Below, one piece after another: positions 20,056 through 37,212 of a DNA stretch of 42,717 nt (within the stretch, counting starts at the first letter, position 1; every line of letters starts with the position of its first letter). The DNA lies in the sequence record SRR22947727_660, one strand, 5' to 3'. The position numbers and the translations under genes were made by a program. The notes under the pieces were generated by a model. It had not been told where the DNA came from, made no database searches, and saw only the letters and a list, made by a program, of their open reading frames with translations.

Positions 20056-20100
20056 AAAAAAAGTTATGTTTTTACTATAACAAAATAAAAGTAGGATATT

Positions 20101-21030: not shown

Positions 21031-21058
21031 CACACATAACAGCGCATAGGATTATATT

Positions 21059-21571
21059 ATGGAAAACATTATTTCAACTAAAACAATTTACGAACCAGAC
21101 TCAGCAATTTTTATAGACCAAGATAAAACTACAATAAATGTTAAAGTAAAAGAACAGTTTATAGTTAAAGATTGGTCAGGTAACGAACATCCAAAAGAAA
21201 ACACATTTATTAGAACTATAAGAGTAGAACCTTCTGATTCATTTACTGAATTTTTAGAACAAATTTCTTTAGAAAATGTAGAACAAAATACATTAAAAAC
21301 TAATGATTTAATCGAAAAACAAAATAAAGAATTTGAAACTAAAATAAAAAAAAATATTTTCAAAGAATTGAATTCAAAACCTATAGAACAAATATCCACG
21401 TTTGATATAAATAATTTATCAGACGAAGATTTATTTAAATTAAAATTACAGTCGTTTGAAATAGAAAAAGTTAAAAATTCAACTAACAGAGAATTGAAAG
21501 CTTCGTTGAGAAAGTCTTCTAATTTTATGGAAACTGTTGCATATACAGTTGCTATTATTCTTGACAAATAA
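21059..21571 (+). CDS. hypothetical protein
   Basis: 170-aa ORF with an AGGA RBS and a charged helical C-terminus. Overlaps the first radical SAM gene. Confidence 0.65.
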   Translation: MENIISTKTIYEPDSAIFIDQDKTTINVKVKEQFIVKDWSGNEHPKENTFIRTIRVEPSDSFTEFLEQISLENVEQNTLKTNDLIEKQNKEFETKIKKNIFKELNSKPIEQISTFDINNLSDEDLFKLKLQSFEIEKVKNSTNRELKASLRKSSNFMETVAYTVAIILDK

Positions 21572-22976
21572 ATTACCATCAGAAACCTTTTGCGCTTTAC
21601 CTTGGCTACATCTTTCAACTAGACCTAATGGTCACATGAGAGTATGTTGTACAGCTAATGCTAGTGCTGTGAGTGTCAATGCAGACTCTAATAATAAAAC
21701 AATTTCTGAATCTGGTGTGTTAAAAAGAGATGATGGAAAGCCAGCCAATCTTGCAACAACAGGGTTATTAGAATCATGGAATAATGAATACATGAAAAGT
21801 ATTCGTAAAATGATGCTTAAAGGAGAACAACCTCAGTCGTGTACAAAGTGTTTCAAAGAAGAAGAAGCCGGACACAGAAGTAAAAGAATATGGGAAACAC
21901 GTAAGTGGGTAAACGAATTAGGTATCGATGATATTATAGGTAATACAAAAGAAGACGGTAGTGTTGATCCTAAAATAAGATATATAGATCTTAGACTTGG
22001 ATCTAAATGTCAACTTGCATGTGTAATGTGTTCTCCTCATGATAGTTCTAATTGGGTACCTGAACATAAAAAAATATATCCTACATTGAAAAACGATCAA
22101 TTAAAAAAATCTATGGCATGGGAAAAAGAATCTGGTAAGCTAGCTTGGTCTGGTGGTTCGTATAATTGGCATAAAAAAAATCCTAGCTTTTGGAAAGAAT
22201 TGTATGAACAATTACCTCACCTTAAACAGTTATATTGGGCAGGTGGTGAATCTCTTATAATGGATGATCATTATACTTTATTAGAAAAAATTATTAAAGA
22301 CGGGCTAGCTAAAAATATTGAATTAAGATATAATAGTAATGGTATTGAGTGGAGAGAAGATTTATTTGATTTGTGGAAGCAGTTTCGTAATGTTATATTT
22401 CATTTTTCAATAGATGATATAGAAGAAAGATTAGAATATATAAGATACCCAAGCGATTGGAATCAAATAGAACAACAGATTCATAAATTAGATAATTATC
22501 CTCATGGAAATTTATCACTCACTACTGCTTGGACTGGAATAGCTTTAAACATATATTATCTACCAGAATTTTTAAAATGGAAACTTAAAAGTAAATTTAA
22601 ACTACTTAATAAATGGCCAAGTGGTGCTGGAATGTTTTCTTGTCATCTAGCTTATTGGCCTCCACAATTAAACATTAAAGTTCTACCACAATGGTTTAAA
22701 AATGAAACATCACAGAAGTTTGATGAAGAATTATATCCTTGGTTAAAAGAAAATTGGAAAATGTGTACCGGCACTGAAGATATAAGTTATGAAGTCTGGT
22801 CTCAAAGCGAGTATGGTATAAAAAGAATACAAGGACTTTTAAACTTTATGCATGCTGAAGATTGGTCTACAAGATTAAATGCTACTAACGAATGGTGTTA
22901 TAAAGTTGCTAAACAAAGAAATCTAGATTTCAATAAAACATTTCCTGAAATGGATTGGTTAGAGTGGTACAAATGA
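21537..22976 (+). CDS. radical SAM protein with N-terminal SPASM/twitch-like Cys cluster (start may be TTG 21561)
   Basis: CxxxCxxC (CQLACVMC), AGGE and YNSNG motifs. N-terminal FCALPW...RVCC...CTKC. Confidence 0.88.
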   Translation: MHIQLLLFLTNKLPSETFCALPWLHLSTRPNGHMRVCCTANASAVSVNADSNNKTISESGVLKRDDGKPANLATTGLLESWNNEYMKSIRKMMLKGEQPQSCTKCFKEEEAGHRSKRIWETRKWVNELGIDDIIGNTKEDGSVDPKIRYIDLRLGSKCQLACVMCSPHDSSNWVPEHKKIYPTLKNDQLKKSMAWEKESGKLAWSGGSYNWHKKNPSFWKELYEQLPHLKQLYWAGGESLIMDDHYTLLEKIIKDGLAKNIELRYNSNGIEWREDLFDLWKQFRNVIFHFSIDDIEERLEYIRYPSDWNQIEQQIHKLDNYPHGNLSLTTAWTGIALNIYYLPEFLKWKLKSKFKLLNKWPSGAGMFSCHLAYWPPQLNIKVLPQWFKNETSQKFDEELYPWLKENWKMCTGTEDISYEVWSQSEYGIKRIQGLLNFMHAEDWSTRLNATNEWCYKVAKQRNLDFNKTFPEMDWLEWYK

Positions 22977-24307
22977 GTAAAACTTTTTGTCCATTGCCTT
23001 GGAATAGTATAAATTTACGTAACAATGGCGACATGAGAATATGTTGTAATACAAATAGCTATACTCTCAATAGAGGTTTATTAAAAAAAGAAGACGGAAC
23101 TTATTTTAACGCAGGTAAAGATGATTGGAATGAAGCAAGAAACGCTCCTCTTTTGAAAGAAGTAAGAGCCACTATGATGAAAGACAAATGGCATCCAGAA
23201 TGCGAACGTTGTAGACAAGAAGAAGTGAATGGTGTTAAAAGTAGAAGAGAATATGAGAAAGAGGATTGGGTAGAAACAAACGTATTAGATAATACTAAAA
23301 AAGACGGTACGTTGGATACATCTAAACAAAAGATTGAATTTATGGATTTGAGATATGGGAATTTTTGTAATTTAAAATGTAGAATGTGTGGTCCAACAGA
23401 TAGTAATAAATGGTACGATGATCTTGCTAAACTACAAAATTCAGATACACCTACTTTCAAAGATGGTTCTTCAGAAGTTACTTTACATAAAAATAAAAAA
23501 GGTAAATTAGATACTGATCATTTCAATTGGTTTAAAAATAATAATAGATATTGGTCAAATTTTGAACAGTATGCACCAGATGCTAAAAAACTTTATATAG
23601 TAGGAGGTGAACCTCTTATAATTCCTGAGCATCAAGAAAGCCTACAAAGATTAGTGGACAGTGGTAAATCTAAAAATATAGAGCTAGAGTATAACAGTAA
23701 CCTTACAATGGTTCCTAATAAATTAATTTCTTTATGGGAACAATTTAAAGAAATAAGAATAGGTGTTAGTATAGATGGTATAGACGAAGTGTTTGATTAT
23801 CAACGTACACCTGCTAAATTTTCAAACGTATATAAAAATATGCTTTCTTTACAGAATAATGATATCATTAATTTAAAAGCATGGTTTGCTTTTACTATCA
23901 CACCATATAATATATTCCATCTTCCTGAATTTATGAAATGGAAACTTGAAAAAAGTGGTTTAGATAAATTTAATCCTCTTTTGGGTCCTAGACCATTAGT
24001 AACACACCACATGTGTCATAGTCCTAAATATTTTAACATAAAAGTTTTACCTTTAGATACAAAAAATCAAGTATGGGATTATTTTGAATTATATAAAGAT
24101 TGGATTTATTCTACTAAATATTCTGAACATGTTAAAAATAATTTTACAAAAATTTTAGACGGTGTTGTGAGATTTATGATGAGTGAAGATTATTCAAAAC
24201 AATACTTACATGAGTTTATAAGTCAAACAAAAAAATTAGACATAATAAGAAATCAAGATGTAACTAAAATAGTACCTCAATTTAAAGGATTATTTGATGG
24301 AAGATAA
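22973..24307 (+). CDS. radical SAM protein with N-terminal SPASM/twitch-like Cys cluster
   Basis: CNLKCRMC, VGGEP and YNSN motifs, plus FCPLPW...RICC...CERC. ATG 22973 forms an ATGA overlap with the upstream stop (the track start is 22955). Confidence 0.88.
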   Translation: MSKTFCPLPWNSINLRNNGDMRICCNTNSYTLNRGLLKKEDGTYFNAGKDDWNEARNAPLLKEVRATMMKDKWHPECERCRQEEVNGVKSRREYEKEDWVETNVLDNTKKDGTLDTSKQKIEFMDLRYGNFCNLKCRMCGPTDSNKWYDDLAKLQNSDTPTFKDGSSEVTLHKNKKGKLDTDHFNWFKNNNRYWSNFEQYAPDAKKLYIVGGEPLIIPEHQESLQRLVDSGKSKNIELEYNSNLTMVPNKLISLWEQFKEIRIGVSIDGIDEVFDYQRTPAKFSNVYKNMLSLQNNDIINLKAWFAFTITPYNIFHLPEFMKWKLEKSGLDKFNPLLGPRPLVTHHMCHSPKYFNIKVLPLDTKNQVWDYFELYKDWIYSTKYSEHVKNNFTKILDGVVRFMMSEDYSKQYLHEFISQTKKLDIIRNQDVTKIVPQFKGLFDGR

Positions 24308-25688
24308 TGGTGTAATATGTATGTTGCCTTGGTTACATTTTACTGTTACTATGAATGATAGTATAAGACCTTGTTGTAGATTTAGTCAAAAATCCAAAGT
24401 AAAAATTGATAACTATTACAAGGAATACGAATGGTTAAGAAAAAATATGCTTGATGGAGTTAAAACTAAAGAATGTACAAGATGTTATATAGAAGATAAA
24501 AATACAAAATCTATGAGATCAACAGCCAATTTAAACTTTAAGTTAAAAGAAATAAACAACTTAACTGTTCAACCATTACCTTTGCAATTTATTGAAATAA
24601 GTTTAGATAACATATGTAATCTTGAATGTAAAATGTGCAATAGTTTGTATTCCTCAAAGTTATTAAAAAGAGATATTATGTTAAACGATAGTAATCCAAA
24701 TATGTTTGGTAATGACATACAATTTAGTAAACCTGTTAAAGTTAATAACAAAACAAGATTCGAAAAGTTGAAAGCGTTGGACATATCGTGGGAGCATTTA
24801 ACTGAAATAAAATTATTAGGGGGAGAGCCTTTTTTATCTCCTCAGTTTAAAGAATTTTTAATTTTTTTTATATCTAAAGGTAACCCTGATAAAATTACAT
24901 TAGAAATTGTTACTAATTGTACTAATAAATTACAAGATGATGTTATAATATTATTAAACAAATTTAAAAAAATAAGACTAACTGGTAGCATAGATGGCGT
25001 ATACAAGTACAATGATTATCAAAGAGTCAATAGTAATTTTGAAGATTCAGTTAAAAATTATAAATTATATCTTCAACAACTTAACAATATAGTCAAACCT
25101 CATATACACATAACATGGTCTATTTTAAATATTAATTGTATTAATAAAACAATTGATTTTTGGGAAAACGAGAAAAAGAATTTACCTGGTCTATCAATTT
25201 CATCTGCAGTTGCAAATGGCATATTGTCTCCTACACATGCTCCTCCTTGGTATCACGTTTGGCTAGATAATATAGTAAATTGGGACCAAGATAAAATGAC
25301 TAAAGTTACTAAACAAATATTAAATGAAACTTCAAAGTTTAGTTATAAAGATTGGAAATTAATTCAAAAACAAATTAAACTTACAGATGAATTTTACAAA
25401 ATGTATTTGAAAGACTATAATCCAGAACTTTATAATTTTTTTATAAAGTATGAAAAATATGATAATTTTATTGAAGATGTTGCTTCAGAACAATTTAATT
25501 TAATTGAAGAATTTAAAACAAGACATGACAAAGAAGTATCTGAATTAAATTTAAGGAATAGACAAACTAATCTAAGGAATAGACAAACTAATCAAAACCT
25601 TCAAAACTATATTAAAAAAGAAACAATAGAAAAAGTTATAGGTAAGTCATTATATAATTTTTACTTTGATCGAAACAATGAAATGTAA
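24297..25688 (+). CDS. radical SAM protein with N-terminal Cys cluster and C-terminal coiled-coil extension
   Basis: CNLECKMC, LGGEPF and ICMLPW...RPCC...CTRC motifs. The track start is 24294. Confidence 0.85.
   Translation: MEDNGVICMLPWLHFTVTMNDSIRPCCRFSQKSKVKIDNYYKEYEWLRKNMLDGVKTKECTRCYIEDKNTKSMRSTANLNFKLKEINNLTVQPLPLQFIEISLDNICNLECKMCNSLYSSKLLKRDIMLNDSNPNMFGNDIQFSKPVKVNNKTRFEKLKALDISWEHLTEIKLLGGEPFLSPQFKEFLIFFISKGNPDKITLEIVTNCTNKLQDDVIILLNKFKKIRLTGSIDGVYKYNDYQRVNSNFEDSVKNYKLYLQQLNNIVKPHIHITWSILNINCINKTIDFWENEKKNLPGLSISSAVANGILSPTHAPPWYHVWLDNIVNWDQDKMTKVTKQILNETSKFSYKDWKLIQKQIKLTDEFYKMYLKDYNPELYNFFIKYEKYDNFIEDVASEQFNLIEEFKTRHDKEVSELNLRNRQTNLRNRQTNQNLQNYIKKETIEKVIGKSLYNFYFDRNNEM
25552..25593 (+). 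repeat. exact 21-bp tandem duplication (taaggaatagacaaactaatc x2)
   Basis: Read directly. It is in frame and encodes NLRNRQT NLRNRQT. Confidence 0.9.
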
Positions 25689-26868
25689 ACATGCATGGAC
25701 ACATTTAGATTTTAAACCTGGAGGTTATGCTCCTTGTTACAGATTTAAATTATATAATAATAAATTAGGTAAAATTCCAGATTTACCTTCTGATGTGATT
25801 AACAACGAACATTGGAAAGATATAAGAAGACAACTTAGAAGAAACGAATGGCCTGAAGGTTGTAAAGATTGTCGTATACAAGAAGAAAATAATATTAAAT
25901 CATATAGACAAAGATCTTTAGAAAGTACTATTTCAACACCTGATTATGATAATGACAATGTTGTTATTACTGATTTACAATTGAAGATGAGCAATACGTG
26001 TAATTTTAATTGTATGCATTGTGATGTAAAATCAAATTCTAATTTTCTTTTAGTTGGAAATAAAAACAAATATATTGCTGAAACTTTATATAAAAATCAT
26101 AATTTTGATCATGTTATTAGTAAAAGAGGTAAGGTGATTAATAAACCTACAAGTAAGGTAATGGATGATCTATTTTGTAATGTTATTCCTAATGTACAAA
26201 CGTTAGAATTCTCAGGTGGTGAACCTTTTTATCATATAGAAATGTACAAAACACTTGAAAGAATGATAAATGATAAAAACATTGACACAAAAAAAATTAC
26301 ATTAACTTACAACACTAACATGAGTTTAATAAAATTTAAAAATTATGATTTGATAGATCTATGGAAACATTTCAAAGGTGTAAGTATTACAGTTAGTTTT
26401 GATGGTACTGGTAATTTGTTTAATTATTTTAGACACAAAGGTGATTACGATCAAGTTGTCAAAAATCTTAAAACAATTGTTAACAATTGTAAAAATTTAA
26501 AAAGTTTATTATTAGTTTGTACATCATGTAGTTACCATGTTTTTTATATGAATGAAATTTCTAAAGATTTTATAAAATTAAGAAAAGAATTAAACAAAAT
26601 TTCCTATAACAATTTAGAGATTAATATTAGAACTACCTTTGTTCACTCTCCTGCTGGTTTAGATATAGTTAATTTAGACGAGAAAACAAAAGTTACTTTA
26701 CTCAACGAAATAGAAGAAAACGAATTTACTAAAGATATTATTAAAAGACTCAAAGGTAAGAGAACAATACCAAAAGAAACATTTAAAGATATAGTTAAAA
26801 TGCAAGATACGTTATATAATAGAGATGCCTCATTGTTAGCACCTAGGATATTTGATTATGTTTATTGA
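25678..26868 (+). CDS. radical SAM protein
   Basis: CNFNCMHC, SGGEPF and YNTN motifs, plus N-terminal KCKHAW...PC...CKDC. ATG 25678 is the likely start (track start 25666). Confidence 0.85.
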   Translation: MKCKHAWTHLDFKPGGYAPCYRFKLYNNKLGKIPDLPSDVINNEHWKDIRRQLRRNEWPEGCKDCRIQEENNIKSYRQRSLESTISTPDYDNDNVVITDLQLKMSNTCNFNCMHCDVKSNSNFLLVGNKNKYIAETLYKNHNFDHVISKRGKVINKPTSKVMDDLFCNVIPNVQTLEFSGGEPFYHIEMYKTLERMINDKNIDTKKITLTYNTNMSLIKFKNYDLIDLWKHFKGVSITVSFDGTGNLFNYFRHKGDYDQVVKNLKTIVNNCKNLKSLLLVCTSCSYHVFYMNEISKDFIKLRKELNKISYNNLEINIRTTFVHSPAGLDIVNLDEKTKVTLLNEIEENEFTKDIIKRLKGKRTIPKETFKDIVKMQDTLYNRDASLLAPRIFDYVY

Positions 26869-27367
26869 CAAAGACACAACGATTACAATTAATAGACCTC
26901 ACTCAACAATTTATATAAAAGAAAACTATGTTAAAAAAATATTGCATAAAGATTATAAACATTTAAACCACGACGGATGGTTAGACAAATATAACCATCT
27001 TAGAGAATATTGCCCACAGCTAGTTAAAATATATAGTATAAATAATAATGAAATAATCATGGAAAAAGTTATTGGAATTAATGTTGATGATTACAAATAT
27101 GAAGATATTATAAAAGAAACACAATTGTTTAATATAAGTATTAACATTAATTTATTAGTATCACAATTATATAATTTTTCAAAAAATGTAGGTGAGCAAT
27201 GTATACATCGAGATTTAACTCTTTCAAATATTATAGATATAGGTAAAGGTGAATTAAAGATAATAGATCCTGAATCTATATGGTTTGATATAAAGTTAAA
27301 CAACTTCCCATATTTAAAAACACAAATTCAATTAACCGAATTGTTTACAATAATTGGTAATAGATAA
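26858..27367 (+). CDS. small protein-kinase/phosphotransferase-fold protein
   Basis: YVKK, IIMEKV.G, HRDL.LSNII and LKIIDP match the kinase catalytic loop and Mg-binding motifs. The track start is 26852. Confidence 0.65.
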   Translation: MFIDKDTTITINRPHSTIYIKENYVKKILHKDYKHLNHDGWLDKYNHLREYCPQLVKIYSINNNEIIMEKVIGINVDDYKYEDIIKETQLFNISININLLVSQLYNFSKNVGEQCIHRDLTLSNIIDIGKGELKIIDPESIWFDIKLNNFPYLKTQIQLTELFTIIGNR

Positions 27368-28392
27368 TGACCTATGAATATAAAAATATTCGAATGGTTC
27401 ATTTAGAAACTACGCAACTTTGTCAAGCATCATGTCCTATGTGTGATAGAAATATGAATGGTGGGGAAGTTAATCCTTATCTTAAAAATAAATCTTTATC
27501 CTTAGAAAACATTAAACATATTTTTCCTGAAAGTTTTTTACACCAATTAAATTATATATATTTTTGTGGTAATCATGGAGACCCTATATTTGCACCTGAG
27601 TGTTTAGAAATGTTTGAATATATGAGATCAAAAAACAAGTATCTTAATTTAGGTATTACTACAAATGGTGGAGCTAGAAAACCTGATTGGTGGACCAAGT
27701 TAGCTAAATTAAATGTACATGTGAACTTTTCTGTTGATGGTTTAGAAGATACAAATCACTTATATAGACAGGGTGTTGTTTGGAAAAACGTAGAGGAGAA
27801 TATTGATGCTTTTACTACTGCAGGAGGTAAAGGTGATTGGACTTTTTTAGTTTTTAATTACAATGAGCATCAGGTAGAAGAAGCTGAAAGATACTCAAAG
27901 TTATTAGGTATTAATAAATTTATAGTAAAAAAATCAGGTAGATATCTTACTTCTAATTTAGAAAAAAAAGAACAACATCAAGCAATTTTTAGAGAAGGTT
28001 TAGGAACACTTTTAAGTAAACCAAAACAAATGAAATATAGAAATAAAGAATTAGAAAGAGATATAGATATTAATAAATCTCTTAAATTTTTTGATGTAGT
28101 ACCTAAATGTGTTCAAAAAAAAGAAATTTACATATCAGCTGAAGGTTTTGTTTTACCTTGTTGTTGGACCGCTGGTCAAATGTATAAATGGTATTTAGAT
28201 CCAGAAGCATCTGAAATTTGGAAATATATAAAAAATTATAATATTAATTCTTTAGATAGTTCAATTGAAGAGGTAATGGAAAATGGTTTTTTTGAAAAAA
28301 TACAACAAAGTTGGAAAGGTGAGGATAGAATGAAAGTTTGTACTGTTAAATGTAATAATAAATTTGATCCTTTTACAGCTCAATGGAATTAA
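27367..28392 (+). CDS. radical SAM protein with C-terminal SPASM/twitch domain
   Basis: CQASCPMC, CGNHGDP, TTNGG and FSVDGL motifs. C-terminal C....IYI...G.V.PCCW...C...C. Confidence 0.88.
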   Translation: MTYEYKNIRMVHLETTQLCQASCPMCDRNMNGGEVNPYLKNKSLSLENIKHIFPESFLHQLNYIYFCGNHGDPIFAPECLEMFEYMRSKNKYLNLGITTNGGARKPDWWTKLAKLNVHVNFSVDGLEDTNHLYRQGVVWKNVEENIDAFTTAGGKGDWTFLVFNYNEHQVEEAERYSKLLGINKFIVKKSGRYLTSNLEKKEQHQAIFREGLGTLLSKPKQMKYRNKELERDIDINKSLKFFDVVPKCVQKKEIYISAEGFVLPCCWTAGQMYKWYLDPEASEIWKYIKNYNINSLDSSIEEVMENGFFEKIQQSWKGEDRMKVCTVKCNNKFDPFTAQWN

Positions 28393-29123
28393 GAAATACA
28401 AATTTTGATAAAGTTAAAGTAGACATTAAAAATAATACAGTTTACAAATTTATCAATTTAAAAAACAATAATGATAAAAAACAATTTGAAAGTTTAAAAA
28501 AATATATTTTCTATATTTCAGAACAAATAGATTTTTTACCTAATGTTAAAATTTATGAGAATAGAGAATACGAAGCAGTGATAGGAACTAATTTTTTAAA
28601 AAATATAAATTCTTTTTACCGACTTCTAGAAAACAGATATGCGTTTACTAACAATGATTTAAAAAATTTTTATTTTTTTGTTAATGGAATAATTAATTTA
28701 AACTTCTTGAATGTTTCAAATTCTATATTCAAAAAAAACGATTTAATAATTTGTTATGATCCAGGGGATCATGTTAATTTTTTAAAAAAAGTATTCTTAG
28801 ACAAAAATAATAAAATTTGGTTATTGCTTAATTACACTGATATTAAAATATTAACTATTAAAAAATTGATATCTAATTATACATATCAACAAAAAGATTA
28901 CATTAACAATAGCTTGAATTATATCTACGAAAAAGTACGTGATGAGAGAGTAGAACAAGATAAAGTACGGGATGTTAAAAATATAAAATTTCAATTACAA
29001 AATACAATAAAAAAACAAAATGAATTAATTATTAAATTGCAAAATGATAGAATAAAATATTCAGATGTACAAAAAATATTAGGAGATAATTTATTCAGTC
29101 AATACTTTGGAGATAAAAAATGA
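28383..29123 (+). CDS. hypothetical protein (possibly a degenerate kinase-like fold with a coiled-coil C-terminus)
   Basis: Lys/Asn-rich ORF overlapping both neighbours, with no intact catalytic motifs. Its C-terminal motif resembles that of the 24297 radical SAM protein. Confidence 0.5.
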   Translation: MELRNTNFDKVKVDIKNNTVYKFINLKNNNDKKQFESLKKYIFYISEQIDFLPNVKIYENREYEAVIGTNFLKNINSFYRLLENRYAFTNNDLKNFYFFVNGIINLNFLNVSNSIFKKNDLIICYDPGDHVNFLKKVFLDKNNKIWLLLNYTDIKILTIKKLISNYTYQQKDYINNSLNYIYEKVRDERVEQDKVRDVKNIKFQLQNTIKKQNELIIKLQNDRIKYSDVQKILGDNLFSQYFGDKK

Positions 29124-29473: not shown

Positions 29474-30506
29474 AAGCAAATATAATTTCAACGATATACC
29501 ATTTAAAGATATAGAAATGGTTGGTCAACATACTATGGTAATAAGAGATTTGTTTACTGTATCTTGGTTGTTAGGAAGATTTTGTAATTACAATTGTTCT
29601 TATTGTTGGCCTTATGCTAGATCAAGTAAGAAAGATCATAGAGATACAGATTTATGTTTAATGACTATAGACGAAATAAAAAGACAAGCGAGGGACAATG
29701 GGTTTAATTCATTTCATTTTTCACTTAGTGGCGGTGAACCTACTTTTCATCCAGGGTATTTGGAAATACTCGAGCATCTTGCTGATGACGCTAATAATTG
29801 CAATTATACTTCTATACATATGACAACTAACTTATCAAGGAAAGGACCTTGGTGGGATAAGTATTTAGATATAGCTAAGAAATTTAACAGAGCTTCTATA
29901 ACAGCTTCTTGTCATAGAGAGTCAATCAATACACAAGCCAAGTTAGAAGAGTTTAGAGATAAGTTAGTTTACTTACAAGACAATGGAACTAAAATTACTA
30001 TTAATCAAGTGATGTTAGTTGATACATTTTGGCAGTGTTTAGAAGACGCTAACTTCTTTGCAGAAAAAAATATTAACGTAACTCTTAAACCTCAATCAGA
30101 TCCAACAGCTTCTTTTGTTGTTGATGGTTATACCGACGAGATGTTGGACATATTACACAATGGTATGCCTCAAAAAGTTGAGGGTAAACAAATTTTTCAA
30201 GTTGAAATGAGAGACTCAAAAAATAAAATATGGTGGATGGATCAAGCTGAAAGATTTAATGCTTTTAATTTTAACAAATTTGAAGGATGGGAATGTTCTT
30301 CAGGTTATAGATCAATAATAATTAGAGAACCAGACGGTAGTGTTAAACGTAGTTATAGTTGTAGAGATAAACCTTTAGGTTATATTCATAAAGGTTTTAA
30401 ATTATTTGACAAGCCTAAAATATGTTCGACAAAAACATGTGTATCTTCTGCTGATAGTAAAATACCTAAACGTAAAATAGGTACAGGTCATAAATTATGG
30501 CCATAA
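29460..30506 (+). CDS. radical SAM protein
   Basis: CNYNCSYC, SGGEPT and MTTNLS motifs. C-terminal W.C..G...I...G...R..C...C....C cluster. The track start is 29442. Confidence 0.85.
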   Translation: MELNKSKYNFNDIPFKDIEMVGQHTMVIRDLFTVSWLLGRFCNYNCSYCWPYARSSKKDHRDTDLCLMTIDEIKRQARDNGFNSFHFSLSGGEPTFHPGYLEILEHLADDANNCNYTSIHMTTNLSRKGPWWDKYLDIAKKFNRASITASCHRESINTQAKLEEFRDKLVYLQDNGTKITINQVMLVDTFWQCLEDANFFAEKNINVTLKPQSDPTASFVVDGYTDEMLDILHNGMPQKVEGKQIFQVEMRDSKNKIWWMDQAERFNAFNFNKFEGWECSSGYRSIIIREPDGSVKRSYSCRDKPLGYIHKGFKLFDKPKICSTKTCVSSADSKIPKRKIGTGHKLWP

Positions 30507-31222
30507 TAAACTTTTTCACATTTAAATGGGGAGCTAAATATGGCCCAGAATACGTCAATAGACTTTATGGAAGTTTACGGAATAACTGTAGTCACAATTT
30601 TATACTTAATGTTATTACTGACAACGTTCACGATATTGATAGCAATATCAATATTATCGATTATACCAGCTTTGATCCTTTTTGTTATCCAAAAAATCAA
30701 ATCTTTACTCGAGAAAAACTCGTCTTATTCAACAAGTTCGTAGAAGGTAGAAATTGTTGGTTAGATTTAGATATATTAATACATGATAATATAGATGAAC
30801 TAATTGAACAAGAATTACCTAGGCCTAAATTTATATGGAACTACTGGAATGATTATAAAGAACGTTCAGAGAAATGGTACGGTAAAGGGGTGTCTTGTCA
30901 CGTTAATTCCTCAGTTGTAATGTGGGAAGGTGATAATGGTAGGTACTTATACGACTTACTTGTAGATAAAGAAAAAGAAGCTTTCTTTACATACAAATCT
31001 TTAGATAAGTTTTTATTCTATCAAGCTCACAGAAAAGGTTTACTTGATTATTGGGATGAAGGTATAGTAAGTAATTATAACAAAGAATATTTTAAAAGAA
31101 AAGGCAAAATAAGTATATTCAACACTTCACATATTTTGCATAATAAAGGTATTACTGAACAAGCATTTGAGTTAGATGAGGTACAAGGATGGGCAGAAGA
31201 GATCTGGAAAAGTTATTATTAG
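30497..31222 (+). CDS. GT-A fold glycosyltransferase-like protein
   Basis: KWG.KY.PEYVN.LY, .TD, K..LF, DxD (WLDLDILI) and NSSV..W motifs typical of phage GT-like nucleotide-diphospho-sugar transferases. Confidence 0.72.
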   Translation: MAIINFFTFKWGAKYGPEYVNRLYGSLRNNCSHNFILNVITDNVHDIDSNINIIDYTSFDPFCYPKNQIFTREKLVLFNKFVEGRNCWLDLDILIHDNIDELIEQELPRPKFIWNYWNDYKERSEKWYGKGVSCHVNSSVVMWEGDNGRYLYDLLVDKEKEAFFTYKSLDKFLFYQAHRKGLLDYWDEGIVSNYNKEYFKRKGKISIFNTSHILHNKGITEQAFELDEVQGWAEEIWKSYY

Positions 31223-31605
31223 ATTCAATCATTAACGATGGTTACGAATCTGTTACTTTAGTTGCTTGCAACGAAAGAAGTGACCTTGTATACAAGTTAT
31301 CAGGCTTGGGTATACATGTTGATATTGTAGATTATGATCCAAAATTTAAAAATCCTAAAGATGTAATTTTTGATAATATTAAATTTAATGAATTAGTTGT
31401 TGACTTTAATGCTGAAAAGCATTATCCTATAGGTAAAGTTTATAAAGGTGATTTAATTGTTGTTGGTGATAACGATCAACATAACGGTGATTGTAACCCA
31501 ATTGATAATGTAGATATATTAATTGAACAAAATAATATAACAAATGTTGATTTTAGCTATAATATAGATAAGTGGTTTGTTGTAAAGGGAAACAATGCAG
31601 ATTGA
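31189..31605 (+). CDS. hypothetical protein, possibly a reduced Rossmann/methyltransferase-like fold
   Basis: VDIVDYDP, VVDFNAEKH and H.GDCN loosely parallel FFEIDP, LINTSCEH and DHINC in the next ORF. Confidence 0.45.
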   Translation: MGRRDLEKLLLDSIINDGYESVTLVACNERSDLVYKLSGLGIHVDIVDYDPKFKNPKDVIFDNIKFNELVVDFNAEKHYPIGKVYKGDLIVVGDNDQHNGDCNPIDNVDILIEQNNITNVDFSYNIDKWFVVKGNNAD

Positions 31606-32239
31606 ATATGCAAATATGCTCAAGTGGTTTTATAATAACCACTTAGATAAAATAGATAGATTTGTTGAATCAGTATCTCATAATCAACAAAAATCAAAAG
31701 AACAATTATTTCTTGGTTTAAAAGAAAAAAATATTGTTGTTCCTAGTAATGAAGATGGTGGCATAACTATTGAAATAGTAGGTGGGTGGTTTGGATGGCC
31801 ATTAATAGGTATGTTACAAAAATATTTTGGTAACTCAATATTAAAAATTAATTTTTTTGAAATTGATCCTTTTGCTGTAAAAGTTCTTCATAGATATATA
31901 AAAGAATTTGATCCTTATTTTACTATTAATATATTTGAACAGGATTGGTTTACTTATAAAGAAAATAGAAGAGCTCATATACTTATCAATACGTCATGTG
32001 AACACATGAAAGACTTTTCAGAAATGAGAGAATATTTTATTAGTCCTGAAAGAACATTATTAATGTTAACTTCAAATGATAAGATTAATGAACCTGATCA
32101 TATTAATTGTAAAAATTCATCAAGTATGTTAGCTATGGATAATAATGTTAGAATGCTACATGGCGATTGGTGTAGATTTAATGTTGGCACGCCTGAAAAA
32201 TATATTAGGTATTTTGTTATAGGCAAGTGGAATGGTTGA
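31595..32239 (+). CDS. class I SAM-dependent methyltransferase-like protein
   Basis: IEIVGGWFG (motif I-like), FFEIDP (acidic motif II), LINTSCEHM and H.NC. Confidence 0.6.
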   Translation: MQIEYANMLKWFYNNHLDKIDRFVESVSHNQQKSKEQLFLGLKEKNIVVPSNEDGGITIEIVGGWFGWPLIGMLQKYFGNSILKINFFEIDPFAVKVLHRYIKEFDPYFTINIFEQDWFTYKENRRAHILINTSCEHMKDFSEMREYFISPERTLLMLTSNDKINEPDHINCKNSSSMLAMDNNVRMLHGDWCRFNVGTPEKYIRYFVIGKWNG

Positions 32240-32786
32240 TATATTATTGGTCAATACAGGAGACAAGTATCCTCAAATTTATACTGATAATATAATTTAT
32301 ATGTTAGATAAAACTGGTACAAAGTATGATAATGTTCATATAATTTCTGAAGAACAGTATGATGGTGTATGGAACAAACTTCAATTGTTCAGAGACTTTA
32401 AGAAAGGTCCTTATCTATATTTTGATTTAGATGTATGTCTAACAAAAAATGTCGAATACTTACAAAGAAAACAATTTACGTTATTGAAAGCTTGGTGGAG
32501 AGAAAAGTATCACACACCATTAAATTCCTCAGTTATGTCGTGGGAAGGAGATTATTCTTTTTATTATAATATTTTTAATACAAATCCAGATTACTATATG
32601 ATGAAATACAAAGGTATTGATCAATACATATACGAATTAGATATGAGTTACACAACATATGAGCCGGTGTGTACTTCTTATAATTGGCAAGGGTTTAACG
32701 ACAATTGGGGTGTTACTATTTTTAATCAAGCATATGATAAGATGAGGGAGCAAGGACCATGGTCAAAGTATATGCTGTTCGAATAG
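32232..32786 (+). CDS. GT-A fold glycosyltransferase-like protein
   Basis: G.KY...Y, WNKLQLF, DxD (YFDLDV), NSSVM.W and G.DQYI motifs. Confidence 0.72.
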   Translation: MVDILLVNTGDKYPQIYTDNIIYMLDKTGTKYDNVHIISEEQYDGVWNKLQLFRDFKKGPYLYFDLDVCLTKNVEYLQRKQFTLLKAWWREKYHTPLNSSVMSWEGDYSFYYNIFNTNPDYYMMKYKGIDQYIYELDMSYTTYEPVCTSYNWQGFNDNWGVTIFNQAYDKMREQGPWSKYMLFE

Positions 32787-33319
32787 GTAACAAATATGGA
32801 ATTGAATACGAAGAATATTTAAAACAAAAAATTCCTGGTATAACATTTATTAACAAATCTGTAAATCCATTTATTTTACAATGGAACAAATTAAGATTTA
32901 TGGATTTAGATGTAGACGAACCTATATGTGTAATAGATGTTGATGTTGGTTTGTTTAATAACTATATGGAATTATTTAACTATCCAATTGATAAAGGAGA
33001 GTTTTTAAGTATTCCTAGTTGGTGGAAAGATACACAAAAAGAACAATACAAAATTAATGGAGGTTTCTATAAATACTACCCTAAAGAATGTAGATACATT
33101 GTCGACAGATTCAGAGAAAAACCTGAATATTATACAACTAAATATATTAAAAATCAGACTACAGTTGGACCAGTTAACGGGGAACAGTACTTTGTCGAAG
33201 ACACAGCTAGAGAAAATCTCGAGGTCAGAACAGTCCCAGAATGGTGGGTACAGCGAGCGTTTAAAGGCAAGTTTTTTCAAGACGGTGAAGTAAAATTAGT
33301 ACACTATAGTTGGCAATAA
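32759..33319 (+). CDS. GT-A fold glycosyltransferase-like protein
   Basis: G.KYG.EY, WNKL.FM, DxD (VIDVDV), NGGFYK, GEQ.FV and a terminal VH motif. Confidence 0.68.
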   Translation: MVKVYAVRIGNKYGIEYEEYLKQKIPGITFINKSVNPFILQWNKLRFMDLDVDEPICVIDVDVGLFNNYMELFNYPIDKGEFLSIPSWWKDTQKEQYKINGGFYKYYPKECRYIVDRFREKPEYYTTKYIKNQTTVGPVNGEQYFVEDTARENLEVRTVPEWWVQRAFKGKFFQDGEVKLVHYSWQ

Positions 33320-33333
33320 AATGGAGATAAAAA

Positions 33334-33864
33334 ATGTATAACATTTATAATAATTATGATCATATTCCTACGGAGGATTTCACCTTTGAATATATCGAAG
33401 GTATACAAATAGACGACAATTTATTACATAAAACAGTATCTGAAATTAAAGCAGGAGGCTTATTAAGCACTTGGAAAACTGAAGAAAGAAAATCTTTCAA
33501 CTTAGATGACCAATATAAAAAAAATAATGAAAATTCAGTTTATGATCAATTTGAAGTTCAACAAAACGTAATAGAATTATTAAAAAAACAAATTGATATT
33601 TACATACATGATAATTTAATAAGGTATCAAGTTTTAAGAAACGGTATACCTAAACACACAGATGCAAAAAGACACTGTATATTAAATTACATTATTAATA
33701 CTGGGGGGGATAATGTTGTTACAAAGTGGTATGATTCTAATAATAATGTAATAAATCAAGTTGTTGTACAAGAAAAAAAATGGTACAGAATGAAAACTAA
33801 TATTGATCATTCTATAGAAGGAATAACATCTGATAGATTAATGCTTACAATATCAATTTTATGA
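33334..33864 (+). CDS. 2OG-Fe(II) oxygenase / cupin-like protein
   Basis: HxD (PKHTD), LNYII, distal His (IDHSI) and R..L.I, consistent with a DSBH facial triad. Confidence 0.6.
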   Translation: MYNIYNNYDHIPTEDFTFEYIEGIQIDDNLLHKTVSEIKAGGLLSTWKTEERKSFNLDDQYKKNNENSVYDQFEVQQNVIELLKKQIDIYIHDNLIRYQVLRNGIPKHTDAKRHCILNYIINTGGDNVVTKWYDSNNNVINQVVVQEKKWYRMKTNIDHSIEGITSDRLMLTISIL

Positions 33865-34424
33865 AAAATTATAAATTAATTGAATGGTCAAATAAATTAA
33901 ATCTAGAAAATTTTTATAAACTAGCTAAAGAAAAAAAATATGTTAATAATAGTAATCAAAAAAATTTAGTAGATTGTTTTAAAAATGAAAAAAGATTTAA
34001 CGTTTGGATATTATATGATGATTTTGAACCTGTAGGAAGTGTTGCTGCGCATAGTTTTGATGATGTTATGGGTGAAGGTAGTTATAGAGTCTTAGCTAGA
34101 TGTTGTGTGATAAATGGAAACAGGCCCAATCATGGTTTAGGTACAGCAAAGAGATTAATCTCAGAACATCAAAACGTAAATGATCAATTTTATCTTCCTA
34201 AATGTATAGAGTGGGCCAACAGCGATAAGCTATATGTTACATCAAATCAAAATAGTGAAGGTAGTCAAAAACTTGTTGATAAAATATATTTTCCTACATT
34301 GCAAAAAAAAGGAATTGTTGAAAAAATAAAACACATACGTTATAGAAATACTGATCAAGTAGTATGGAAAATAAATATTAAAGAATTTCAAAACAATTTG
34401 AGGAGATTTAAAAGATGGCAATAA
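33861..34424 (+). CDS. putative GNAT-fold protein
   Basis: Pattern W..Y....VG.VA.H......YR..AR.C resembles an acetyltransferase beta core. Weak evidence. Confidence 0.4.
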   Translation: MKNYKLIEWSNKLNLENFYKLAKEKKYVNNSNQKNLVDCFKNEKRFNVWILYDDFEPVGSVAAHSFDDVMGEGSYRVLARCCVINGNRPNHGLGTAKRLISEHQNVNDQFYLPKCIEWANSDKLYVTSNQNSEGSQKLVDKIYFPTLQKKGIVEKIKHIRYRNTDQVVWKINIKEFQNNLRRFKRWQ

Positions 34425-35101
34425 ATGGCAAGTGGTTAATAGACCTTGAGCCTTTTGTCAATTTAACTGAATTGAAAGAATTAGATTATGAATTGTGTAG
34501 AGGTTTTGCTTTGTCTGAATATCACTTACCTACACCTGGAATAAGGCCAATTGGTTTAGAACATTCACCTAGTGAAATTGAAAAAAAATGGAAAGGTAAA
34601 GACGAAGTTCAGGGAATGTCTGATACTCAAAGAAGACTTTTTTTGAGTGTTTATGAAAAAGCAGCTTTTCCAGGTAGAGCTGTAATGATAAAAAAACAAG
34701 ATCATTATAAAAATAAACATTTAGATAAACATTGTGTCTTTACTAAAAATGCAATTTTCTTTCCTAAGTTATTAAGTTTTATTAATAAATTTCCTTTTAA
34801 AGAGTATGGAAGAATAGAATTATTTGTAGGTTATCCAAATTGTTCAGTACCTATTCACAAAGATGTGATGGACGAAAATGATGTAAATGAAAAAACATGT
34901 GATTTTTTTTGGTTGTCAACAAGAGGTAATGATAAAAAATTTTATGTTTTAGATGATAAAAATAAAAAACATTATGCAACCCACATATCTTGGTTTGATG
35001 AAAAGGATCCTCATGGTTCTGACCCATTACCTTACAGTACATTGTCACTTAGAGTGGATGGTATATTTGAAGAAGAGTTTAAAAATAAATGTCTGATGTA
35101 A
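34415..35101 (+). CDS. 2OG-Fe(II) oxygenase / Asp-hydroxylase-like protein
   Basis: GRI..F, HxD (PIHKD), WF.E.D.HG and S.RVDG motifs. Confidence 0.6.
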   Translation: MAINGKWLIDLEPFVNLTELKELDYELCRGFALSEYHLPTPGIRPIGLEHSPSEIEKKWKGKDEVQGMSDTQRRLFLSVYEKAAFPGRAVMIKKQDHYKNKHLDKHCVFTKNAIFFPKLLSFINKFPFKEYGRIELFVGYPNCSVPIHKDVMDENDVNEKTCDFFWLSTRGNDKKFYVLDDKNKKHYATHISWFDEKDPHGSDPLPYSTLSLRVDGIFEEEFKNKCLM

Positions 35102-36438
35102 TATTATTTACAGATGTCAATGGATGCTTTGGTTTTGGAAGATATGCTGGTACATATAGAATTGCTACTGAATTGAGAAATATGAATTTAAAGGTACAAA
35201 CAATAGATTTTTGTATGAGTTTTAACATTGATGAAATACTTGAAATAATAAAAAAATATATAACTAAAAAAACAAAAATGGTTGGAATATCAAGTACATT
35301 TTTAGTAACTTCTAATAACAACATTGTTGATAGAGTTAATATGGGAATAGCTAATACAAAATCTACTAGTGTAGGATGGAACAAAGAAGAGTTTAATTTA
35401 ATATCTAGTTATATAAAAAAAATTAATTCAGAAATAAAAATTGTAGTAGGAGGTTCTAAAATAAAGTATGATGTTTCTAATGTAGATTTTTGGGTAGCTG
35501 GTGAAGGTGAAAATTTTGTAAGAAAAATGTTTTCAAATAATAATAAATTTAATTTTAATACTAGTAAAATTGAATGGAATGAAAGTGATTATATTTTTAA
35601 AAACGAACACTTACCTATAGAAATTGCAAGAGGTTGTATATTTAAATGTAGTTTTTGTTCATATAATTTAAATGGAAAAAAACAAAACGATTATGTTAAA
35701 TCAACAGATGTTGTAAAGGAAGAATTATTAACAAATTATCAAAAATACGGAACAACAGGATACATGTTTTGTGACGATACGTATAACGATACTGTATCTA
35801 AAGTAAAAAAATATTATAAAATGTTGACAAACTTACCTTTTGAAATAGAATTTAGTACTTATATGAGATTAGATTTGATAGCATCCAAACCAGAAACAAT
35901 AGATATGCTTTACGATAGCGGATGTAGAAGTGTTTTTTTTGGTATTGAAACTTTTAATAAAGAAGCTGGTAAAAATATTGGTAAAGGTATGGACTCCAAT
36001 AAAATTAAAGATACTTTATATCTTTTAAAAGAAAGATGGCCTGAGACTGTTATTGGAGCTGGATTTATAGCTGGATTGCCACATGAAACAGAAAAATCAT
36101 TACACAGTACAATAGAGTGGTTAAAAGAAAAAAATTGTCCAATTGACTCACCTAGTTTACAAGTATTAAGTGTAGGCAAAAACAGTTCTATAGGTAACAA
36201 TCCATTCAATTTTGGAATTGAAATTACAAACTATGGCTGGAAGTCTAAATGGACTAATAGTAATAGAATGAAAAAAATTGTGGAGAATACTAATTTTCCT
36301 ATCCTTAACAATTTTACTTTTTACAATAGAATAAAAAATTTGAACATAGATAAAAAACATATTAAAAATAAAAATTATATAAAAATTAATGAGAAATATA
36401 ATATTTTATTTCAACAATACAAGGATAATATATTATGA
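35089..36438 (+). CDS. B12-binding (class B-like) radical SAM protein
   Basis: N-terminal B12-binding-like region (VGISSTF, IVVGG, GEGE). E.ARGC.F.CSFC, DDT.N, R.DL, FFGIET and FI.GLP.ET motifs. Confidence 0.85.
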   Translation: MSDVILFTDVNGCFGFGRYAGTYRIATELRNMNLKVQTIDFCMSFNIDEILEIIKKYITKKTKMVGISSTFLVTSNNNIVDRVNMGIANTKSTSVGWNKEEFNLISSYIKKINSEIKIVVGGSKIKYDVSNVDFWVAGEGENFVRKMFSNNNKFNFNTSKIEWNESDYIFKNEHLPIEIARGCIFKCSFCSYNLNGKKQNDYVKSTDVVKEELLTNYQKYGTTGYMFCDDTYNDTVSKVKKYYKMLTNLPFEIEFSTYMRLDLIASKPETIDMLYDSGCRSVFFGIETFNKEAGKNIGKGMDSNKIKDTLYLLKERWPETVIGAGFIAGLPHETEKSLHSTIEWLKEKNCPIDSPSLQVLSVGKNSSIGNNPFNFGIEITNYGWKSKWTNSNRMKKIVENTNFPILNNFTFYNRIKNLNIDKKHIKNKNYIKINEKYNILFQQYKDNIL

Positions 36439-37166
36439 ATAAAGTATTTTTTGATGTCGATAAAGAAGGTAGACCACTTGTTCACGCAGTACCAGAGAAT
36501 AAAACAAGAGTGTTATACCACGAACTAGACTTGAAATTAACCTTTCCTACAGAAGAAGATATGGCATGTGAGGCTCAACTTTCAGCAATTGGTACATGGG
36601 AACCACTTAGATTTATAATTAAAGATTGGTACAAAGATGAGAGTGAGTTAATTGATTTGTGGAGACCTTTTCAACCTAAAAAAGGAGTTTCAAACGATAG
36701 GGAGAGCATTCTTTTATATGGAGCTCCTGGTGCTGAACCGACTGATCCTTGTGGTCTTTCACAGATGGCATTAAAATCTGGTATAAAACCACGCGAAGAT
36801 TCAATGAGAACACCTACATCTGCTCAACCTAAACTAAAATGTTTACAAGAAGTATTTGACTATTTTGAGTTAGGTAGAACTTTTCTTGTAAGATTAAACC
36901 AAGGAGGACATTATCCACCACACCGTGATTGTCATATTCTTACTCGTCCAACTTTTAGATTAATTGCCTTTCTAGGAGATTCGACTGGAAAACTTAGATG
37001 GGAAGTTGAAGGTAAAAGGGTTTATGTTGAACCAAATCATTTATATTATGTTGATACAAGAAAGATGCACAACCTATGGAGTAGTGGTTCTAAGAGTACA
37101 ATGTGTGTATTCAATATAATGAAAGATTGGAAAAACACTATGAAAGTTCTATCCATGCTAAAATAA
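36435..37166 (+). CDS. aspartyl/asparaginyl beta-hydroxylase-like 2OG-Fe(II) oxygenase
   Basis: GR..LV.L..GG.YPPHRD (HxD), FRLI and Y.VDT.K.H (distal His) motifs. Confidence 0.65.
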   Translation: MNKVFFDVDKEGRPLVHAVPENKTRVLYHELDLKLTFPTEEDMACEAQLSAIGTWEPLRFIIKDWYKDESELIDLWRPFQPKKGVSNDRESILLYGAPGAEPTDPCGLSQMALKSGIKPREDSMRTPTSAQPKLKCLQEVFDYFELGRTFLVRLNQGGHYPPHRDCHILTRPTFRLIAFLGDSTGKLRWEVEGKRVYVEPNHLYYVDTRKMHNLWSSGSKSTMCVFNIMKDWKNTMKVLSMLK

Positions 37167-37197
37167 TAGAACTGTAATAAGTTGCCTTTATAGTCGT

Positions 37198-37205
37198 TAT
37201 AAATA
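37198..37205 (+). promoter_or_regulatory. T4-type late promoter (TATAAATA)
   Basis: Perfect TATAAATA, intergenic, 7 nt before the gp16 ATG. Confidence 0.75.
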
Positions 37206-37212
37206 ATATATC

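Follow-up and report, generated by a model that had tools for sequence, protein, structure and literature searches.

Hypervariable islands with glycosyltransferase and radical S-adenosylmethionine (SAM) genes in the fibre region of marine T4-like phages, and T4-like genomes rich in radical SAM genes, have previously been noted in passing. In pelagimyophages a hypervariable 'host recognition cluster' was described that holds fibre genes, GT8 glycosyltransferases and radical SAM cassettes (Zaragoza-Solas et al. 2020, PMC7029224), and marine T4-like environmental genomes were reported to be rich in radical SAM genes, the highest number being 12, in a genome of 183 kb (Nishimura et al. 2017, PMC5332604). 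In this paper we describe an enzyme island at positions 21059-37166 of sequence record SRR22947727_660, a stretch of 42,717 nucleotides which we analysed as a whole and call the window. Like the host recognition cluster, the island is a large hypervariable block in the structural region of a marine T4-like phage and is associated with fibres, glycosyltransferases and radical SAM cassettes. The host recognition cluster is defined between VrlC and gp14, whereas the island in the window lies before gp16; the related genome G001 fits the VrlC-gp14 placement. The part of that paper which deals with these islands contains no enzyme-level analysis and favours the modification of host lipopolysaccharide (LPS) (PMC7029224). 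The environmental genomes resemble the island phage in being T4-like, marine and endowed with many radical SAM genes, but the passages on these genes discuss them together with Fe-S cluster assembly and give no island anatomy, glycosyltransferases or function (PMC5332604). New here are the enzyme-level anatomy of such an island, its conserved core, a counterpart in Bdellovibrionota and a negative result on the DS[D/E] motif of the virion proteins.

The window is a low-GC stretch (GC about 0.22-0.36) of a T4-like myovirus. Among cultured phages, cyanomyoviruses come closest by the large terminase, with no identity above 53-54%, and OM43 and SAR11 myophages by gp6, with 33-34%. The source phage is marine, T4-like and uncultured, and has its relatives among pelagimyophages and cyanomyophages. 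PHROG profiles identify gp25, gp6, a gp7-like protein, gp8 and two VrlC-like giants (phrog_358) in the upstream flank, a neck protein, gp14/gp15 and three fibre-like open reading frames (ORFs) as further upstream genes, and the small and large terminase subunits (gp16/gp17) and further fibre-like ORFs downstream. The island itself consists of 20 ORFs, all on the + strand, which follow gp14, gp15 and the three fibre-like genes, directly precede gp16 and are set in the string of structural and packaging genes without intergenic space. Neighbouring ORFs overlap at 18 of 19 junctions, and the sole gap (33320-33333) measures 14 nt. The first-pass annotation, which had described 20 co-oriented and nearly all overlapping ORFs between the structural genes and gp16, was correct in this, and also in stating that DNA-metabolism genes are absent: Pfam, NCBIfam and PHROG scans found none within the island. 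Genes for polyketide synthases (PKS), non-ribosomal peptide synthetases (NRPS) or lipid synthesis are likewise missing from the island, tRNA and Rfam searches gave no match, and no near-identical DNA was found among 50,697 phage records. No 19-residue Kyte-Doolittle window in the 20 proteins exceeds 1.31, and therefore no transmembrane segment, flippase or polymerase is predicted among them; the products appear to be all soluble.

We favour, tentatively, the reading that this is a strain-variable cytoplasmic tailoring island of the host-recognition (fibre) region, whose enzymes most likely decorate acceptors that the phage itself makes, for example virion proteins. The radical SAM proteins and other tailoring enzymes would act in the cytoplasm of the infected cell and convert a host sugar nucleotide, or a sugar that is already attached, into an unusual strain-specific sugar or adduct. 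Glycosyltransferases of the GT-A fold would then transfer or extend that sugar on a phage-made acceptor, most probably a fibre, neck or baseplate protein of the virion and possibly the product of the co-travelling gene o20101. The outcome would be a variable virion surface.

Seven radical SAM proteins had been claimed for the island, and all seven indeed pass the Pfam Radical_SAM cut-off (PF04055; 30.7-63.5 bits against a cut-off of 29.5) and carry the CX3CX2C cluster motif. They are the following.

o21537, 21537..22976, + strand: N_Twi_rSAM protein (NF033640 390 bits), CQLACVMC at residue 158
o22955, 22955..24307, + strand: N_Twi_rSAM paralogue 2, variable cassette (NF033640 346 bits)
o24294, 24294..25688, + strand: N_Twi_rSAM paralogue 3, variable cassette (NF033640 201 bits), replaced in locus L003
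o25666, 25666..26868, + strand: N_Twi_rSAM paralogue 4, variable cassette (NF033640 219.5 bits)
o27367, 27367..28392, + strand: radical SAM protein with C-terminal SPASM-like domain, core (Radical_SAM 47.2 bits; SPASM E 0.004)
o29442, 29442..30506, + strand: plain radical SAM protein, core (Radical_SAM 54 bits)
o35089, 35089..36438, + strand: radical SAM protein with weak N-terminal B12-binding signal, class-B-methylase-like, accessory (Radical_SAM 63.5 bits)

The first four are tandem members of the NCBIfam family NF033640 (N_Twi_rSAM, 'twitch domain-containing radical SAM protein'), which has a cut-off of 170 bits; o27367 (60 bits) and o29442 (53 bits) miss it and are not members. All four carry a SPASM-like Cys-rich domain at the N-terminus; in o21537 and o22955 Pfam places a SPASM match N-terminal to the radical SAM core (residues 19-105 and 12-86, respectively). 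The four paralogues are mutually only 21-33% identical and appear to be old. At its C-terminus (window positions 25500-25650) o24294 also carries the short tandem repeat NLRNRQT NLRNRQT. The accessory o35089 resembles B12-dependent radical SAM methylases and PhpK but by its scores is not a member, reaching 20.3 bits for the B12-binding domain (PF02310, cut-off 32.1) and 107 bits for the PhpK family (TIGR04479, cut-off 600); it also weakly matches HpnJ and a lipid radical SAM family in NCBIfam, and tblastn found no match to it in the 50,697 phage records.

No relative of o21537 is found among PDB sequences at E 1 or better, and o27367 and o29442 have generic radical SAM matches only, at E 0.006 or worse. 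Cultured phages hold no close o21537 homologue (at best 23-26% identity, in four records), and there is no N_Twi_rSAM match in HTVC008M or Melnitz. Our literature search found no functional study of such radical SAM arrays or of NF033640, and we know of no member of the N-terminal-twitch family with a known reaction. In NCBIfam, the N_Twi paralogues have secondary matches to SPASM maturases that modify peptides (PapB, YhhB, TIGR04083, nif11), all of them far under the cut-offs.

A scan of IMG/VR with o21537 matched at least 117 contigs, of which we kept 80 loci, and counts out of 80 below refer to these. An o21537 orthologue is present in 80/80 at 52-98% identity, and it is the most conserved core gene. 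Orthologues of at least 40% identity exist for o27367 in 59/80 and for o22955 in 29/80 loci, the latter gene being replaced in G006/L003. In distant contigs, often in the same order, we find orthologues of o22955 (about 61-65% identity), of o25666 (52-59%, order conserved), of o24294 (37-43%), of o27367 (41-69%) and of o29442 (58-87%). That paralogues which are 21-33% alike within the window have distinct orthologues in distant contigs, three of them at 52-65% identity and the fourth (o24294) at 37-43%, would fit a multi-step pathway.

The second conserved part of the island is a block of glycosyltransferase-like genes with two companions. By gene, this block recurs in 11-29 of the 80 loci.

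o30497, 30497..31222, + strand: GT-A-fold, GT8-like putative glycosyltransferase with DxD motif, core (AlphaFold2 model and Foldseek)
o31189, 31189..31605, + strand: 138-aa acidic protein kept with the block (21/80 loci; no family match)
o31595, 31595..32239, + strand: weakly class-I-methyltransferase-like protein, core (profile against PDB: putative methyltransferase and spermidine synthase, E 0.02)
o32232, 32232..32786, + strand: GT-A-like paralogue of o30497 (BLASTP E 1.7e-7 to o30497; DxD kept in the alignment)
o32759, 32759..33319, + strand: third GT-A-like paralogue (hhalign to the o30497 family profile at 96.2% probability, E 2.4e-9, over the DxD region)

The AlphaFold2 model of o30497 (pLDDT 86, pTM 0.87) is matched by Foldseek to retaining GT-A enzymes of the GT8, GT24 and GT6 type, among them GlyE (5gvw), UGGT (7zll), LgtC (1g9r) and alpha-1,3-GalT, with E about 1e-7, TM 0.5-0.6 and probability 1.00. 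There are 295 PDB matches at E <=0.001, and among the about 45 matches listed all are GT-A enzymes except one phosphotransferase (CpsY). GlyE, the top fold match, is a serine-rich-protein glycosyltransferase. Residues D90-L91-D92 of o30497 are invariant in 25 sequences, and DLD or DVD is found in all three paralogues. The earlier assignment of three GT-A-like ORFs thus holds up, on one predicted structure plus homology. The island proteins share fold and DxD motif with the known GT8, GT24 and GT6 enzymes, but are only 9-14% identical to them and much shorter (184-241 aa). Sequence profiles detect none of this: o30497 has no glycosyltransferase match in Pfam or NCBIfam at E 0.01, its neighbours have none up to E 10, and a search of PDB sequences with the glycosyltransferase-like profile returned nothing meaningful. 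The label of o31595 as methyltransferase-like is less secure; its profile match at E 0.02 gives weak support and nothing exceeds a threshold. This gene is found in 26/80 viral loci.

With genuine GT-A-like enzymes beside fibre genes, the decoration of phage-made proteins is the most economical explanation. There is precedent in mycobacteriophages, whose glycosyltransferases decorate virion proteins (Freeman et al. 2023, cited in PMC12619734) and, like those of the island, adjoin structural genes. These are, as far as described there, siphoviruses of Actinobacteria with few glycosyltransferases and no radical SAM array, and their acceptors are the C-termini of capsid and tail-tube proteins.

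A comparison of relatives divides the island into a core and exchangeable cassettes. The core consists of three radical SAM genes (o21537, o27367, o29442), the GT-A trio, the methyltransferase-like o31595 and the small acidic ORF. Accessory cassettes hold extra N-twitch radical SAM paralogues, a thioesterase, the B12-type radical SAM protein, a cupin hydroxylase-like protein and several unknowns. In 38 loci of at least 20 kb there are 6-13 radical SAM-like genes per locus, with a median of 8. The exchange is seen most directly in G006, where TerL is 99.5% and gp15 99% identical to the window; here 8 unrelated ORFs replace 33334-37166 and other radical SAM genes replace 22955-26868. Another relative, G007, has eight opposite-strand ORFs in place of 33334-37166, and in L004, L005, L008 and L010 the glycosyltransferase block is inverted and lies upstream of the radical SAM genes. 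The island is a real unit, whose cassettes are exchanged even between near-identical strains. Contigs from four DNA runs over 19500-38500 are short and mosaic, and some stop fitting at 22951, 28383 and about 33321; such breaks at gene boundaries are compatible with cassette exchange, but are too fragmentary for counting.

Cassette swapping at strain level would also fit an arms race with restriction systems, and the island could then build a glycosyl or amino-acid-derived base modification that lets the phage DNA evade restriction. Clusters for thymidine hypermodification are similar in that they combine tailoring enzymes, including radical SAM isomerases, kinases and acetyltransferases, in permutations that vary across viral metagenomes (PMC8989533), and viral glycosyltransferases are known that hypermodify DNA (Pyle 2024, cited in PMC12619734). 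As described in the former source, however, thymidine hypermodification depends on 5-hmdU, a 5-HMUDK kinase and aGPT-Pplase, and its clusters adjoin genes of nucleotide and DNA metabolism (PMC8989533). None of these requirements was detected in the island: Pfam, NCBIfam and PHROG scans gave no 5-HMUDK-like or aGPT-Pplase-like match. The island lies among structural and packaging genes without any DNA-metabolism gene, and a gene of the thymidylate-synthase/hydroxymethylase family is present in only 1/5 island-bearing contigs and absent from the 87%-complete G002, although the other four contigs are at most 73% complete, so that absence from them is weak evidence. We therefore regard DNA hypermodification as very unlikely.

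The nearest cellular homes of the phage radical SAM trio appear, from the matches found, to be Bdellovibrionota chromosomes. In a collection of species-representative genomes we obtained 35 matches, which comprise 31 Bdellovibrionota, one unclassified metagenome-assembled genome (MAG) and three viral-looking MAG contigs. The Bdellovibrionota matches include megabase-scale chromosomes; one, L096, is a 1.56-Mb Bdellovibrionales chromosome of roughly 30% GC with the radical SAM trio. An o21537 orthologue (51-54% identity) is present in 32/32 Bdellovibrionota-type loci, an o27367-like gene (35-43%) in 29/32 and an o29442-like gene (54-60%) in 27/32. Genes like o22955 and o31595 are frequent as well (o31595-like in 9+5 loci). 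These loci resemble the island in the radical SAM trio and often in the o22955-like and o31595-like genes, but they are cellular and lack both the GT8-like trio (no tblastn match) and an o20101-like gene. The three viral-looking MAG contigs L089, L090 and L091, labelled Verrucomicrobiales, Chloroflexota and Planctomycetota, have island genes that are 56-76% identical, and in L089 and L090 these follow the gene order of viral contigs (L089 like L005, L090 like L017/L022). All three probably come from phages and were binned with bacterial MAGs.

Among the neighbours of the Bdellovibrionota trio are GT2 glycosyltransferases and a carbamoyltransferase, in 5/32 loci each. The commonest unfamiliar neighbour shows no relation to the GT-A-like trio, hhalign against the profile of the latter giving a probability of 0.2%. 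A trio that stands beside GT2 and carbamoyltransferase genes in bacteria raises the question whether the phage enzymes remodel the host surface, altering precursors of the LPS O-chain or capsule and so blocking superinfection by competing phages. This is the explicit interpretation given for the GT8-rich hypervariable islands of pelagimyophages, in the part of that study concerned with them (PMC7029224). The LgtC-type lipooligosaccharide (LOS) glycosyltransferases among the fold matches of o30497 point in the same direction, and the hypervariability is what a cell-surface arms race could produce. We nevertheless consider host-surface remodelling rather unlikely, as there is no membrane protein, flippase, polymerase or polyprenyl-phosphate transferase among the 20 products and the island is co-oriented with late-type structural genes without spacing. 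In T4, exclusion functions are expected to be early, which we also count against it.

The prominence of the radical SAM array suggests yet another possibility, in which the chemistry is independent of glycans: the array would modify a protein or peptide (by crosslinks, epimerisation or C-methylation) or make a small molecule or lipid, and the GT-A proteins would be secondary. The secondary matches of the N_Twi paralogues to peptide-modifying SPASM maturases, far under cut-offs as they are, fit this explanation. So does the joint presence of a B12-type radical SAM gene with methyltransferase-like and hydroxylase-like genes, since proteusin-type clusters combine genes of these three classes. A thioesterase is also present, o35089 has its weak HpnJ and lipid radical SAM matches, and the conserved neighbour o20101 could be a protein substrate. 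The island does not look like a maturation cluster for ribosomally synthesised peptides (RiPPs), however. The island, with its single 14-nt gap, has no room for a precursor peptide gene, and no small ORF is conserved beside the Bdellovibrionota trio, the best family, which is unrelated, being found in 4/32 loci. The GT-A paralogues moreover belong to the conserved core, and PKS, NRPS and lipid-synthesis genes are absent. Overall, a glycan-independent role seems unlikely to us.

Two genes at the upstream edge travel with the island.

o20101, 20101..21030, + strand: 309-aa Gly/Ser/Thr/Asn-rich protein without Pfam or PHROG match
o21059, 21059..21571, + strand: 170-aa charged protein, conserved partner of o20101 (14/80 loci; no family match)

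Homologues of o20101 adjoin the island in 11/80 loci and in G005, in three different arrangements, and in G005 an o21059 homologue lies beside the o20101-like gene. The pair thus stays next to the island through three different rearrangements, including that of the distant G005. The AlphaFold2 model of o20101, built from a 10-sequence alignment, has a pLDDT of 40 and no usable fold, and an Atlas search returned nothing beyond viral clusters without names. The protein contains an internal repeat in which residues ~4-30 resemble ~216-245 (RP.K.D..TG.K.MSD.E...Y), and with a GC of 0.35 its gene lies above its neighbours. Possible roles of the protein are those of an acceptor or of a fibre-like component of the virion.

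Taken together, the soluble enzymes, the radical SAM set with the GT-A trio, the linkage to fibres and o20101, the exchange of cassettes, the bacterial glycosyltransferase and carbamoyltransferase neighbours and the absence of precursor, membrane and DNA genes fit the tailoring of phage-made acceptors best. Several observations weigh against it. The island lacks sugar-nucleotide synthesis genes, and its radical SAM families are without a characterised member. Folds of the GT8, GT6 and GT24 kind act on LPS and free glycans too. In relatives, the glycosyltransferase block (L004, L005, L008, L010) or the accessory cassette (G007) lies on the strand opposite to the structural genes, so that a 'late operon' is not general. 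The position of the island also varies, being between VrlC-like genes and gp14 in G001 and elsewhere in G005. Finally, the authors who described the pelagimyophage islands prefer, where they interpret them, a modification of the host O-chain (PMC7029224). The first-pass annotation had proposed that a glycan or adduct is built on virion proteins rather than on DNA. The enzyme island itself, the lack of DNA-metabolism genes and the GT-A genes next to the fibres agree with this proposal. Its other element, that the island writes a DS[D/E] tag, does not agree with our results.

The DS[D/E] motif is striking in its own right. In an unbiased scan of the structural proteins of the window DSD is the top tripeptide outlier, with 63 occurrences against 4.35 expected (Poisson P about 1e-49), and DSE is the second with 16 against 2.32. 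All 79 DS[D/E] sites lie in structural proteins (3384-20055 and 39467-42075), and none in the 20 island proteins or the terminases. The enrichment is 10- to 20-fold across non-homologous virion proteins with variable flanking sequence; where 1.15 sites would be expected in the gp7-like protein and 0.66 in o39929, there are 23 and 13, respectively. The serine codons at the sites are mixed, which indicates that selection acts on the protein level. In orthologues that are 52-82% identical 40/43 sites are kept, where 13.8 would be expected from background tripeptide conservation. As judged from these sequence comparisons, the motif is real and selected.

Whether the island is the writer of this motif, modifying its serine (or aspartate) in virion proteins, can be asked by comparing phages. 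Every DS-enriched genome seen bears the island (the window, L002, G006, G007/L015 and G001). Where the island is present, the DS-dipeptide ratio of the baseplate and fibre ORFs is 2.20 in the window, 2.77 in G007 and 2.13 in G001, and L004, also island-bearing, has one 1088-aa ORF with 7 DS[DE] sites against 0.82 expected. Five island-free genomes are unenriched, with DS ratios of 0.98-1.07 (HTVC008M, Melnitz, P-HM1, the 95% complete G013 and the 81% complete G015). These points speak for a writer in the island, as do the protein-level selection on the motif, its absence from the island proteins and terminases, and GlyE as the top fold match of o30497. However, nine distinct island-bearing contigs have DS ratios of only 0.69-1.11 (G005, G019, G029, G024, G025, G023, G026/G002, G032 and G003), and in one of these, G005, the core is complete, with the three GT-A paralogues present. 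Among 79 gp6-centred IMG/VR loci enrichment is seen only in L132, a close relative of the window. The motif is missing from the majority of island-bearing lineages, and the core is alike in those with and without it. Presence of the island is no predictor of the motif; across phages, the island occurs independently of motif enrichment, which is the outcome that the first-pass annotation had itself named as refuting its idea. The motif-positive genomes are moreover kin, and their agreement cannot be counted as several independent observations. In G006 the DS-rich structural proteins are conserved at 87-99% identity while the accessory cassettes differ, which argues that the writer is not an accessory gene, unless an analogue replaces it. 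The co-travelling o20101 itself has no DS[DE] site.

Structural proteins of G001 (L085/L086) prefer DSA (25 against 3.4 expected), with DSD and DSS also enriched, which suggests a DS-x motif with a lineage-dependent third position. DT is unenriched in the window (38 against 47 expected) and in G001 as well. Bacteroidetes O-glycosylation uses the sequon D-(S/T)-(A/I/L/V/M/T). The DSA preference of G001 would fit a sequon of this type and could reflect a drift in specificity, whereas in the window the third residue is D or E, DT is unenriched and the island is not predictive. One could thus imagine that a radical SAM-tailored sugar is put on the serine of conserved DS-x sequons in baseplate, neck and fibre proteins, that the specificity has drifted (DSD/DSE here, DSA in G001, another target or none elsewhere) and that the cassettes diversify the glycan by strain. 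We consider this scenario improbable, and a DS[D/E] writer in the island equally so.

The remaining island ORFs are accessory.

o26852, 26852..27367, + strand: small protein with weak kinase-like signal (Pkinase E 0.61; phrog_4098 E 8.6e-6)
o28383, 28383..29123, + strand: 246-aa protein without family match (3/80 loci)
o29120, 29120..29473, + strand: hotdog-fold, 4HBT acyl-CoA thioesterase-like protein (PF03061 45.6 bits, cut-off 20.6)
o33334, o33861 and o34415, 33334..35101, + strand: three ORFs without Pfam, NCBIfam or PHROG match
o36435, 36435..37166, + strand: cupin-like, Asp/Arg-hydroxylase-like putative 2-oxoglutarate (2OG) oxygenase (sub-threshold Pfam, Atlas and tblastn signals)

The thioesterase is well founded, as o29120 passes the 4HBT cut-off; its YciA-like score of 29.7 bits lies under the cut-off of that family, and the gene is found in 3/80 loci. 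For o36435 three weak signals agree. In Pfam it matches Cupin_2 (E 0.013) and Asp_Arg_Hydrox (PF05118, E 0.032; 14.5 bits against a cut-off of 22.6), its Atlas neighbours are viral clusters of which 10-16% carry PF05118, and tblastn finds the Asp_Arg_Hydrox protein of Pelagibacter phage Mosig (E 3e-4). Its HRD at residue 163 is followed by histidines at 202 and 212. On the three signals we regard the protein as a probable oxygenase, cupin-type and Asp/Arg-hydroxylase-like. Among the HxD...H oxygenases proposed earlier, three in number, this is the one with some support; o34415 and o33334 have only the HxD tripeptide and no family match, and the 6 homologues of o34415 are without a Pfam domain. 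Neither o34415 nor o33861 has a tblastn match in phage records, and the label of o33861 as a GNAT protein was not borne out in Pfam, NCBIfam or tblastn. The kinase-like label of o26852 has its weak, sub-threshold Pkinase match; the gene is found in only 2/80 loci and phrog_4098 is a family of unknown function. The earlier labels of two oxygenases, methyltransferase, kinase and GNAT protein thus go back to short motifs, with sub-threshold support at best.

The composition of the DNA changes along the window. GC skew is about 0.16-0.33 over 27-36 kb of the island and 0.01-0.19 in the upstream structural genes, and GC drops to 0.22-0.25 around 24-29 kb. This shift across 21000-36000 could stem from a separate history or from a distinct amino-acid composition. 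Outside the island, the fibre-like o14694 (14694-15431) and o17312 (17312-18742) have a common N-terminal segment of ~31 residues that matches the N-termini of baseplate and fibre-connector PHROGs, which suggests that distinct fibre-like proteins share a module for attachment.

The earlier statement that no obvious promoter or terminator separates the island from the virion genes agrees with our counts: neither terminator-like sites (2 against 3.7 in shuffles) nor sigma-70-like sites (120 against 124) are in excess. One element marks the downstream edge of its putative transcription unit.

TATAAATA, 37198..37205, + strand: T4-late-promoter-like element in the gap before gp16

The same element stands in gaps before some other structural genes, and no such element is found in the gap before the island. 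Overall the pattern is below chance (7 found against 12.8 expected), and only the intergenic placements are noted here. The placement fits a read-through of the island from the upstream fibre genes in this phage. Further downstream, a perfect GC-rich palindrome, GGGGTAGCGCTAGCGCTACCCC, lies at 41357-41427 in the gap that follows o39929. It resembles a terminator, and no other intergenic gap of the window contains a structure of this kind.

The DS[D/E] motif will need another explanation or another writer. For the island itself, the minimal conserved core and the counterpart in Bdellovibrionota, a cultivable lineage, provide handles for further study. Uncultured marine phages, T4-like and larger ones, commonly carry arrays of 6-13 radical SAM genes. 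If such islands remodel host envelopes or DNA, they would constitute a large reservoir of new radical chemistry. And if, as we tentatively favour, they decorate virions, then a major source of variation in phage surfaces, in host range and in the evasion of defence would so far have gone unrecognised in the ocean.

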